Shown piece after piece: positions 36,311 through 43,808 of a DNA stretch of 64,000 nucleotides; the stretch's first letter is position 1, and each line of letters opens with the position of its first letter. The DNA comes from Eledone cirrhosa (taxonomy: Eukaryota): contig OZ024740.1 of NCBI GenBank assembly GCA_964016885.1, positions 302,188,001-302,252,000 on the forward strand, given 5' to 3'. The notes beneath the pieces were generated by a model. The model ran no database searches, was not told where the DNA came from, and saw nothing but the letters and a program-made list of their open reading frames with translations. Made by a program: the position numbers and the translations under genes.

Positions 36311-37001
36311 AAACCTTATTCTAAATATCCCTTTTTAAGGCAGAAACCAGAATTACAGAGACAAAGGTTTAAGTATATTCACGCGATCCAAAAATAACTT
36401 ACAATAATTCTCTGAAAATGTTAACACCTATACCAATAGATATTTCAAGCATAGGTCTATCATTTACACCAACACCTTACAAATGAAACATACCAGAAAT
36501 TAAAGATTATATTTTGATTGGCTGCTGAAGATGCAGATTAATGAAACAATCTAAAAAAGAAAGCATGCTGGTATTATAGCATGTCCAATGTACTAGACAC
36601 ATCACCTAAATGACTTCCTAGATATTGTGATGAAGGATTTCTCCCCAAACATTCGGATCTTTCAACCAGATAATATAAACGAAATCACCTCTATTCTTTC
36701 TTTGCATCTTATGAATCTACATAGTAATATTTCACACAGTTACATAATCGAATCAATTAAATACTATCGATAATCATTTCCTTACAAACGTTCAAATCGT
36801 CCTGAGAGAAAATACAGAACAGATTACAATTTGTTTTGGAAGCCAGTTATTTCGTGTACGTCGGTAAAGCACACCGATATAAATCAGGAGCAGCCATTTA
36901 ACAAATCTTGTAACAATATATGCTATTTTTCCCATGAGATACAACGAATCAAAAATCTATGAAAATACTCCCGAATTTATATAGACGAATTTAACTGATT
37001 T

Positions 37002-40481: not shown

Positions 40482-40528
<47 letters not shown>

Positions 40529-40532
<4 letters not shown>

Positions 40533-40720
40533 AAAAAGTTTAAACCCGACGGCAGAGCTCAAGCCGTTTCGACGGCTTTTTCTGGACTGATATAGCCGTC
40601 GAAACGGCTTGAGCTCTGCCGTCGGGGTTAAACTTTTTCCTATTACCCTCTCTAGTACCCTAAGTATTGAGTACTCTGGTAAGTTATGGGCGATCTGGTT
40701 CCTTACCACACCTCCTTCGT
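40529..40720 (+). mobile_element. fold-back terminal-repeat fragment carrying an HHR 3' half; family of 15516-15978
   Basis: Arms 40529-40577 and 40594-40642; GAA-ACGGC-ttgagctct-GCCGT-C-GGGG; 40643-40720 is the reverse complement of 15516-15600. Confidence 0.7.
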
Positions 40721-40908
40721 TATATATATATATATATATAAAAGAAAATTTCTCTCTACATGGCTGAATACAATATATATAATCTGAATCTTTTCGAATA
40801 TTAATAATAACATTCGATGCGTTTGCAATTTTGCAAACAAGCCTCAATTTTATTGCCATGTCAGTAGAATGAACACTTCATTCTTGCTCTTGTGTTGGCA
40901 CACGAACA

Positions 40909-40958
40909 GAACTGCAGACACTAATGTTTCTGGGTATCACCCTTCATCAGTACAGCTC
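40909..40958 (-). ncRNA. type I HHR (inverted unit), intact
   Basis: Exact reverse complement of 41199-41248. Confidence 0.82.
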
Positions 40959-41198
40959 ACAGTTCATGTGCCAAACTCTCAGAGCTAGTGAAAATGTATG
41001 CTATTTTCAAAAATACACAGTGAAACTGACTGGCCAGTCTGCTGATATGCAAATCTGGCTGATCAGTGGATCGGCTAATATGCAGATCTGACTGATCAGC
41101 TAGTATGCTAATATGCAAATCAGGTCAAATCAGTCACTGTGTATTTTTGAAAATAGCATATATTTTCACTAGCAATGACAGTTTGGAAGGTAAACAGT

Positions 41199-41248
41199 GA
41201 GCTGTACTGATGAAGGGTGATACCCAGAAACATTAGTGTCTGCAGTTC
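41199..41248 (+). ncRNA. type I HHR, intact; predicted cleavage after C41240
   Basis: GAGCTGTA-CTGATGA-A-GGGT-gat-ACCC-A-GAAA-CA-ttag-TG-TC-TGCAGTTC. Confidence 0.85.
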
Positions 41249-41622
41249 TGCTAGTATGCCTACACAAGAGCAAGAATGAAGTGTTCATTCTACTGACATG
41301 GTTATAAGATTGTGGCTTGTTTGCAAAATTGCAAACAAATCGAATGTTATTATTAATATTCGAAAAACTGATTACATTTATTGTATTCAGCCATGTAGAG
41401 CGAAATTTTCTTTTTTATTTGAATTTGGCAAAGCAGGCCATTTATCGCTCGTATACTGGCCAGTCTGCTGATATGCAAATCTGGCTGATCAGTGGATCGG
41501 CTAATATGTAGTTCTGACTGATCAGCCAGTCTGCTAATGTGCAAATCAGGCAGACCAGTCACTGTGTATTTTTGAAAATAGCATATATTTTCACTAGCTC
41601 TGACAGTTGGCATGTGAACAGG

Positions 41623-41673
41623 GAGCTGTACTGATGAAGAGTGATACCCAGAAACATTGGGTGCCTGCAGTTC
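41623..41673 (+). ncRNA. type I HHR, probably inactivated
   Basis: Same motif, but with a stem II mismatch (GAGT/ACCC) and triplet GCC instead of GUC. Confidence 0.7.
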
Positions 41674-41819
41674 TGATCGCATGCCAACATAAGAGCAAGA
41701 ATTAAGTGTTCATTCTACTGACATGGCTATAAAATTGAGGCTTGTTTACAAAATTGCAAAGGAATCGAATGTTATTATCAATATTCGAAAAAACTCAGAT
41801 TACATTATATATATATATA

Positions 41820-42710
41820 TTTCTCCTCTTCTCACTTCACCCCGTTCGCAACGAAGTCATTTTCTTTCTCACTCACATTTGAATTCGCTGCTGAAAGGTC
41901 TATTTTCTAAGCGCTCATATATTCACCTAGCTTATGCTAACAGAATAACTATGAAGCTTGTTCCCTTCCTTCTACGGTTAGCTATCCTCTTTGTTGTTAT
42001 CTCGTCTCACTCGCTTTACGCGTTTTAATTGTCCTAATAACTTAATTTAGTTATTATTGCACCGACGTGAGGTATATGATTTTTAATGCAATGAAATATC
42101 TATGATCGTCGGCAAATCACTGATGAGGGACTTATATTATTTTATTACATGTTATCCATGTGCAACCAGCAGTATTCTTCTCCCCATTTTTTCACGTATA
42201 TTTACCTATACTGCGCTTCTGTTTTTTTTCTCTCTCTCTCTCTCTTACTGCTCCCTCTGTTTCTCCTACTTTCTTTCGCCCCCTCTGTCATGTCCGTTAA
42301 CTCTTCCTCACACTTCCACTCACTCACTCACTGTTTCTCCTATTCTCACTTCACCCCGTTCGCAACGAAGTCATTTTCTTTCTCACTCACATTTGAATTC
42401 GCTGCTGAAAGGTCTATTTTCTAAGCGCTCATATATTCACCTAGCTTATGCTAACAGAATAACTATGAAGCTTGTTCCCTTCCTTCTACGGTTAGCTATC
42501 CTCGTTGTTGTTATCTCGTCTCACTCGCTTTACACGTTTTAATTGTCCTAATAACTTAATTTAGTTATTATTGCACCGACGTGAGGTATATGATTTTTAA
42601 TGCAATGAAATATCTATGATCGTCGGCAAATCACTGATGAGGGACTTATATTATTTTATTACATGTTATCCATGTGCAACCAGCAGTATTCTTCTCCCCA
42701 TTTTTTCACG
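41820..42710. repeat. direct repeats of about 380 bp with 514-bp period (LTR-like), (TA)n-flanked
   Basis: 41820-42200 is nearly identical to 42335-42710, with a unique spacer of about 135 bp. Confidence 0.92.
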
Positions 42711-42835: not shown

Positions 42836-43086
42836 TGAAATAGATATATAGATAGATAGGTACAGATATATATTCCTTGAGAAAGATACGTTACTCCCCG
42901 TTACTACAGCAACATCAACTAGAAAGAACGTGAGTTGCGACGGCACTGGTGACAAGCTGTAACATCCACAAAGGTAACGTTAAAACCACACCACCCAGGC
43001 TTGTAAATCGGAAGGAGAATATTCGAGGTGCAACATTCAAATATACACACATGTTTACACACACACACACATATATATATATATAT

Positions 43087-43744
43087 GTTGCAACGTTATT
43101 TGAAATATCCAGTTCTGCGTTTACAGATTGACTTTGTTAGTTTCAGAAGATCCCGTTAAGGGTGAAAGCAGCGATTCTTTGCTTAAACTTTAATCTGTTA
43201 TTTAATAAATATTTGCTCTACGGTTCTTATATATTTGATATATATTTATCCTTATCGAGCCCTCTTTTGATTGTAGTCTTCAATTTTGTTATTATTACTA
43301 TTTGGCTCCCCCGGTTGAGCACTCTATTGACTTATATTCATCATGCAGAAACAACATCTGAATATTTCTACAAAGAACATACCCGTACCAAACAGGAAAA
43401 CATACCTAAAACTCCTGATACAGAAAACAGACACGTTCATTAAAAGGTTGCGTTGGCGTGCCTTTTATTTCGATAATCCGCGAAAAGCAGACAACAAACA
43501 GGATAAATTTGGATTTAAAACCTATAATAACCCCCCCCCCCCCCCGTGGAACCCAGCATTGCTCCGTTCTTTGCCAGCGAACGTTTCCACGAACCAAAGT
43601 ATCGTCTTCCTGTCTTCCTCCAGTTGCAACGTTTTTTGAAATATCCAGTTCTGCGTTTACAGATTGACTTTGTTAGTTTCAGAAGATCCCGTTAAGGGTG
43701 AAAGCAGCGATTCTTTGCTTAAACTTTAATCTGTTATTTAATAA

Positions 43745-43748
<4 letters not shown>
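43087..43748 (+). mobile_element. internally deleted mini-PLE: two about 125-bp direct terminal repeats around the 5' end of a PLE ORF
   Basis: 43087-43212 matches 43623-43748 almost exactly. ORF 43343 reads STKNIPVPNRKTYLKLLIQKTDTFIKRLRWRAFYF...FGFKT, the typical PLE N-terminus. Confidence 0.88.
43139..43189 (+). ncRNA. type I HHR fold, U4A core variant (identical copy 43675-43725)
   Basis: AGTTT-CAGAAGA-T-CCC-gttaa-GGG-T-GAAA-GCA-gcgattctt-TGC-TT-AAACT; stem I is extended by ACAGATTGA/TTAATCTGT. Confidence 0.72.

Positions 43749-43808
<60 letters not shown>

Follow-up and report, generated by a model that had tools for sequence, protein, structure and literature searches.

The systems closest to the locus described here are Penelope-like elements (PLEs) of the Hydra clade, metazoan non-LTR retrozymes, the Anolis element Poseidon and the R2 reverse transcriptase. 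As described by Craig et al. 2021 (PMC8557442), Hydra-clade PLEs combine a C-terminal GIY-YIG domain with DKT, CxCx5C linker, CxxC and CxH motifs, a (TA)n target, partial tandems, inverted arms with a tail at one end, and a type I hammerhead that often carries a U-U at the base of helix II; the family studied here has these traits in common with them. Metazoan retrozymes (Cervera and de la Pena 2020, PMC7229834; Li et al. 2026, 10.64898/2026.07.22.740005) resemble our loci in their 150-450-nt tandem units with a type I hammerhead and in their relation to PLE pseudo-LTRs, and both sources propose that PLE enzymes copy retrozymes from RNA circles; a rolling mode of copying, with circles cut by the ribozyme as templates, has also been put forward (PMC4209133; PMC7229834), and the descent of retrozymes from PLE pseudo-LTRs has already been argued (bioRxiv 10.64898/2026.07.22.740005). 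In Poseidon (Frangieh et al. 2024, PMC11167929), two internal start sites define the tail and both target strands are extended, as appears to be the case here; its RNA is needed for about 55 nt past the start sites, and hammerhead mutants are described as still inserting in vitro. Finally, cDNA made by the R2 enzyme runs on uninterrupted from one template end to another and includes added bases (Pimentel et al. 2022, PMC8857657), a behaviour considered again below.

The window, meaning the whole 64,000-nt stretch of Eledone cirrhosa DNA that was analysed, holds an insertion that (TA)n adjoins at both ends. All oriented parts of this insertion lie on the forward strand, and family coordinates take window position 43087 as 1, with the ATG at 257 and the predicted ribozyme cut at 98|99; in these coordinates the insertion reads as 1-468 joined to -58..127. 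An (AT)8 at 43071-43086 is the left remnant of the target, whose right part lies at 43744-43800. The near-identical direct repeats reported by a first-pass annotation are indeed present: 43087-43212 and 43623-43748 are 126 nt long, spaced 536 nt apart, with a single mismatch (43098 A, 43634 T). From the repeat comparison and the parent map, the copy stops in repeat 1, a 5'-truncated segment of the pseudo-LTR (family positions 1-127), and repeat 2 has its 3' end at the family's first 3'-end site (127, AATAAATA), which is likely where reverse transcription started.

Between the repeats come the 5' leader (43213-43342, with the family's second 3'-end site, position 215, at about 43301) and a 5' piece of a Hydra-clade reverse transcriptase-endonuclease ORF (43343-43563). 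The annotation was right about the leader and the ORF start but not about the length of the latter, given as about 65 codons: there are 70 parent codons plus three proline codons contributed by a lengthened C-run (15 C). The seam, at 43563|43564, joins family position 468 to -58 bluntly, with neither microhomology nor splice signal. The frame opened by the ATG at 43343 continues over it to a stop at 43637-43639, forming a 98-codon chimeric frame. Parent 3'-end sequence (family -58..0) occupies 43564-43622, and the right-hand piece as a whole amounts to some 185 nt of the parent 3' end, beginning 59 nt before repeat 2. Since both repeats carry a minor 3-T variant, found in 12 of 272 retrieved copies (counting the two in the window), they likely derive from one copying event and one template.

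Other structures occur nearby. At 40777-41805 (and also at 10271) there is a different family with a canonical CTGATGA...GAAA core, in which one inverted arm and two direct 425-nt units sit between (TA)n, in what looks like the same two-armed, more-than-unit architecture. A 55-nt inverted repeat, 95% complementary with a 6-nt spacer, adjoins (TA)n at 40528-40643; two 300-nt copies of 99% identity lie 514 nt apart between (TA)n tracts at 41820-42633; and CTGAAGA...GAAA words at 36525 and 58001 may be hammerheads of further families.

The PLE origin proposed in the first-pass annotation is supported by a parent family, and the autonomous parent that it had suggested looking for was found. A search of the organism's own genome returned 2,866 first-look candidates, 40 of which were scored, and 20 extended loci defined a unit of about 3,260 nt (3.26 kb) from hammerhead to hammerhead. 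One copy, L057, has an intact 708-aa ORF with the YRDD motif of the reverse transcriptase and the YIGLT motif of a C-terminal GIY-YIG endonuclease, and both kinds of motif are present in 14-15 of the 16 long copies. In the same 16, DKT was seen in 14, RW[RK] in 15 (as RWR), CxCx5C in 13, CxxC in 13 and CxH, a loose pattern, in all. A Pfam search of the parent ORF returned no match. The family also shows (TA)n insertion, pseudo-LTRs and inverted arms with a tail, and in a by-eye comparison with the published supplement (PMC8557442) it matches the entry Hydra-1_Obim. Motifs and structure together support a Hydra-clade PLE as the parent. In its 3' region, L057 also carries an old duplication of about 125 nt (unit positions 2967-3093 and 3100-3222, 78% identity). 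Copies of the family end in 3' at position 127 or 215, and inverted insertions pair one end of each kind in 80 of 89 cases (30/33 in 49 regions sampled successively along a single chromosome, and 50/56 in the seam set described below).

Each repeat contains a type I hammerhead layout under a constrained fold, with activity that is predicted only. The first (43123-43198) has its core CAGAAGA, that is U4A, at 43144-43150, a U-U at 10.1/11.1, helix II at 43152-43162, GAAA at 43164-43167, a helix III of five pairs ending at 43183 and a predicted cut after 43184 (CUU); the second (43659-43734) has the same core at 43680-43686 and a predicted cut after 43720. The shared U4A core and CUU triplet had been read correctly from the start. 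The description of the fold as well paired stands in part: each of the 13 pairs tested in helices I-III is Watson-Crick or G-U and the layout is the published Hydra-clade one, but the fold is 2.1 kcal/mol less stable than the minimum-energy structure (-13.5 against -15.6), accounts for about 0.1% of the ensemble, belongs to repeats no more stable than their shuffles (z 0.36 and 0.02), and matched no Rfam hammerhead model at E<=1.

The U4A change had been taken as something either tolerated or copied into both repeats in one round. Checking position 4 across the family makes such an account unnecessary, since 12,977 of 13,078 exact-context copies have A (36 have T and 65 C or G, split by manual count into 29 C and 36 G). 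A4 is thus the family state, U4 is no commoner than other chance changes, and the canonical CUGANGA core is not the family's, the 12,977 copies reading CAGAAGA. Contigs of two further organisms (B and C), at low depth, showed no departure from A4 at this position; the contig data hold only loop or pair-keeping hammerhead variants at a frequency of at least 5%, too few for a test. Three loci have U4 on both or all arms (C5:65765463/65766628, C5:111345206/111345691 and C9:23474979-23479271), which suggests rare source copies with a canonical core. Lunse et al. 2017 reportedly dealt with PLE hammerhead variants, and might list some at position 4.

As to function, we consider it quite probable that the U4A ribozyme is slow or dead, although protein-assisted cleavage is conceivable. 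Work on a different hammerhead reports low activity when one or two positions of its CUGA turn are mutated, except for a C3-G8 swap (PMC9901934); a natural U4C variant is said to be adequate in vivo, with U-U at helix II tolerated (PMC3088659). The cut site is not a preferred position for the family's 5' ends: of 80 inner ends, one falls within 94-104, and among the matches listed 5 of 38 distinct loci end there, against about 3.7 expected. The G15.2-C16.2 pair of the family, swapped relative to the C15.2-G16.2 of the 25 Hydra-clade families tabulated in PMC8557442, keeps the helix and thereby suggests past selection on the fold. Two other signals were set aside: the low variability of the hammerhead itself, as many copies had been retrieved by hammerhead words, and trapping of an inactive fold by A4, whose effect is merely twofold (0.12% against 0.22% of the ensemble).

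We then turn to the seam. Its exact form occurs once in the genome, and the four matches to the window seam pattern fall at three loci, each with a restart of its own; no other copy has the same deletion junction. This part of the ORF is covered by 545 copies, and only two copies of the exact 451-468 word continue with a non-parent base; on these data position 468 was rejected as a common third start site. Given the uniqueness of the window seam, no propagated mini-element is seen.

Seams of the same kind are nevertheless frequent in the family, with at least 105 loci carrying one. Three wider seam patterns gave 83, 110 and 17 matches; we mapped all 83 of the first, 32 further loci from the second and four from the initial genome search, and dropped six duplicates to reach 105, a figure that includes L083 and L086, a single duplicated event. 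Within a search range of 241-570, the ORF-side end falls inside the 32 nt from 316 to 347 at 92 of the 105 loci, and a tail of ends reaches 484, the window (468) lying in this tail. Restarts are mostly at -11..-71 (nearly all of them, with the right anchor inside the hammerhead), and of the seven loci whose ORF-side end lies beyond 457, six restart at -42 or earlier. The usual seam unit measures 340-410 nt, that of the tandem arrays 350-410 nt, and the 536 nt of the window stands out as an uncommonly long case. Seams do not coincide with the ribozyme cut site. Back-splicing was ruled out as their source (GT/GC-AG dinucleotides at 0 of 82), and as enrichment of YR initiators at the restarts is weak (0.25 against 0.19), we do not equate restart with transcription start.

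Within a locus, the seam behaves as a property of one template. In two-armed insertions the two oppositely oriented arms have the same seam at 15 of 16 loci (11 scored automatically, L073, L099 and L145 by eye, and L248; L140 is discordant and the ambiguous L136 was excluded). In 7 of the first 13 such loci the maps show that neither arm contains the other, and one arm is therefore not a fold-back copy of its partner. An arm that comes to the restart point a second time shows the seam again at 12 loci, from two times up to at least 11, and passes on without a seam at two (L004, L117). The array at L097 (G000:C2:273373500-273383700) has a unit of 406 nt, at least 11 seams that are all identical (336|-70) and a 3.4-kb interruption; a short inverted arm with its end at 215 completes it, and it is the most retrozyme-like product of the family. 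At L091 and L260, a 30-40-nt piece from elsewhere in the element is inserted within the seam.

We propose that the window locus is probably a one-off insertion into (TA)n made by rolling reverse transcription, about 1.2 times around a short end-joined element RNA. Mechanistically, a transcript starting in the pseudo-LTR would be shortened to 536 nt (family -58 to +468), with its ends held close by a predicted long stem, and these ends would be joined either covalently or by an end-to-end jump of the polymerase, two options that we hold almost in balance with a lean towards the covalent one. The enzyme would nick (TA)n, start at the usual site 127, pass the uncut hammerhead to -58, cross the seam into the ORF start, run through the hammerhead again and stop at +1. 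As the copy would extend over some 1.2 rounds, the 'terminal repeats' of the window would be the overlap of a more-than-unit copy, and hammerhead cleavage would not be needed. Since the window has one arm and one seam, its own assignment rests on the seam class.

The reading that competes best is internal deletion of a full-length copy, through a skip of the reverse transcriptase across the ORF or through later DNA repair, leaving both pseudo-LTRs in place. It fits the window layout taken alone, a full-length transcript could form the same stem with its downstream pseudo-LTR, Penelope copies with microhomology deletions have been reported (PMC3846280), and L004 runs 572 nt upstream without a second seam. 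It cannot, however, yield the identical seams on two arms or the seams repeated within loci, and it sits poorly with the tight clustering of ORF-side ends and with a window seam that has no microhomology. We regard it as unlikely, although still the foremost of the alternatives.

Two separate events, in which a short 5'-truncated copy arrived first and an ORF-internal cDNA was then joined to its 5' end, would draw on behaviour already described, as partial tandems are typical of PLEs (PMC8557442) and internal initiation has been shown for the anole PLE (PMC11167929); the unequal seams within L140 and L104 also point this way. Yet none of the copies has its end at 310-355 abutting (TA)n, and this zone is accordingly not an ordinary start site. 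The near-absence of non-parent bases after the 451-468 word and the minor variant common to both window repeats weigh against it as well, and we find this account improbable.

More doubtful still is a true non-autonomous lineage, a nascent retrozyme re-transposing with a fixed seam, which corresponds to the first-pass idea of a mini-element that had moved as a unit. In its favour, identical seams at different loci form 37 pairs where 13 are expected from the marginals, and possible source arrays exist (L097, L130, L132, L141, L142). The single occurrence of the window seam speaks against it, as do the variants: over an aligned stretch that is short (230-350 nt) and gives the comparison limited power, only one of the 37 pairs has a rare variant in common, L083/L086, explained by 1.7 kb of common flank, 11 of the 13 same-seam groups mix subfamily haplotypes, and L252 and L259 have the same seam and no private variant in common. 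The claim of spread as a unit is therefore not sustained; taken with their identity within loci, these data show that seams arise independently between loci and are fixed within one event. The last reading, a local tandem duplication, which the annotation had named as its own refuting case, or an assembly artefact, is hardly tenable even though no listed contig piece spans the stretch, as the spacer is parental leader and ORF, the right piece begins 59 nt outside the repeat, and the same architecture recurs at more than 100 other loci.

Returning to rolling reverse transcription of an end-joined RNA, the evidence on how the ends are joined points both ways. A covalent circle is backed by the reproducible seams, by the three-piece seam seen three times in L091 and by an extra T seen three times across both arms of L133. 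Jumps, or the use of several RNAs, are favoured by seam microhomology above chance (1.22 against 0.79 nt for 60 unique seams, a level reached in 0 of 4000 permutations), by extra bases at 23 of the 105 seams, by unequal seams within a locus (L140, L104, L124) and by the two arms that passed through. Both may occur, and the blunt seam of the window is compatible with either. A further caveat is that a tandem array could have expanded at the DNA level once inserted, and gene conversion could have made inverted arms alike.

What sets the ends of the RNA may be a predicted stem. Folding pairs family -23..34 with 257..319 (the 3' strand being 43343-43405 in the window), enclosing the hammerhead and both start sites and covering the ATG. 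The duplex is predicted at -29.8 kcal/mol against -17.0 +/- 3.4 for shuffles (3 of 1000 as good) and is the best partner along the unit, for regions that were picked after the seams were seen. Common seams lie just outside the stem base with co-varying overhang lengths (rho -0.57, n=105), and seams of the long class, the window's included, fall beyond an additional predicted helix (-39..-31 with 450-457). Other observations do not fit so neatly: the whole -23..319 region is not unusually stable (22 of 150 shuffles), the end-to-end closeness of the segment is generic and uninformative (median 16 against 18), the variant 26C, found in 43% of copies, breaks one predicted pair, and the long seam of L257 (475|-3) does not respect the outer helix. 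A protein footprint could set the same boundary instead, by analogy with the anole enzyme, which needs RNA beyond its start sites. Within the predicted stem, family 27-34 pairs with 257-264 (window 43113-43120 with 43343-43350) over the start codon, and an uncut transcript might, speculatively, be translationally repressed by it.

On the proposed route, retrozyme-format arrays would arise repeatedly without ribozyme cleavage. Much more tentatively, and with less confidence than the reading of the window itself, we raise the possibility that PLEs repeatedly generate such arrays by circularising a stem-bounded 5' domain without cleavage, that both enzyme subunits copy the same circle from two fixed starts, that cleavage is dispensable in vivo, and that the take-off of a retrozyme needs only a working core in one array. 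Were this so, the dispensability of cleavage would follow from a family with a crippled hammerhead having reached 13,000 copies. The formation of PLE tandems, the role of the PLE hammerhead and the origin of animal retrozymes are open questions in the literature that the seam class makes testable, since over 100 natural seams pinpoint template ends at single-base resolution, mirror arms follow a two-site rule almost strictly, and an element of great success carries a core change that has become fixed.

Compared with described Hydra-clade PLEs, mostly shorter than 3 kb in the account of PMC8557442, this family has a 3.26-kb unit with a long 3' region, RWR instead of RWK and a tail of 88 nt instead of 30-40 nt. 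Its CAGA contrasts with the CUGA of 25/25 families in the table of that paper, and its G15.2-C16.2 (CUU) with the C-G found there in all; a search of its supplement for hammerhead and N-terminal words of the family gave no match. Among the papers searched, none reports ribozyme-independent seams like these or a family-wide U4A.

Set beside retrozymes, the window has 1.2 units of 536 nt, and 12 sister loci have at least two seams; its seam is unique, where a retrozyme family is dispersed with one unit sequence, and it includes an ORF start, where a retrozyme is non-coding. The seams here are off the ribozyme cut site, locus-specific and joined to a non-consensus core, and the seam-array products show no sign of onward spread. 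The suggested intermediate between PLE and retrozyme thus survives insofar as the route yields tandem arrays of retrozyme size, but not as a product of cutting and joining at the ribozyme site, and our verdict on the window locus is a one-off by-product, neither a retrozyme nor a spreading mini-element. The preprint of Li et al. proposes local tandem amplification of terminal sequence (10.64898/2026.07.22.740005), unlike the route proposed here. In the account of Poseidon (PMC11167929) end-joined templates do not feature, and the start sites of our family lie in the leader, 88 nt apart. R2, for its part, belongs to a different enzyme class, and repeated identical seams are not the concern of the study describing its jumps (PMC8857657). 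Taken globally, the seam class is a new variation on known PLE behaviour, the link between PLEs and retrozymes being itself already in print.
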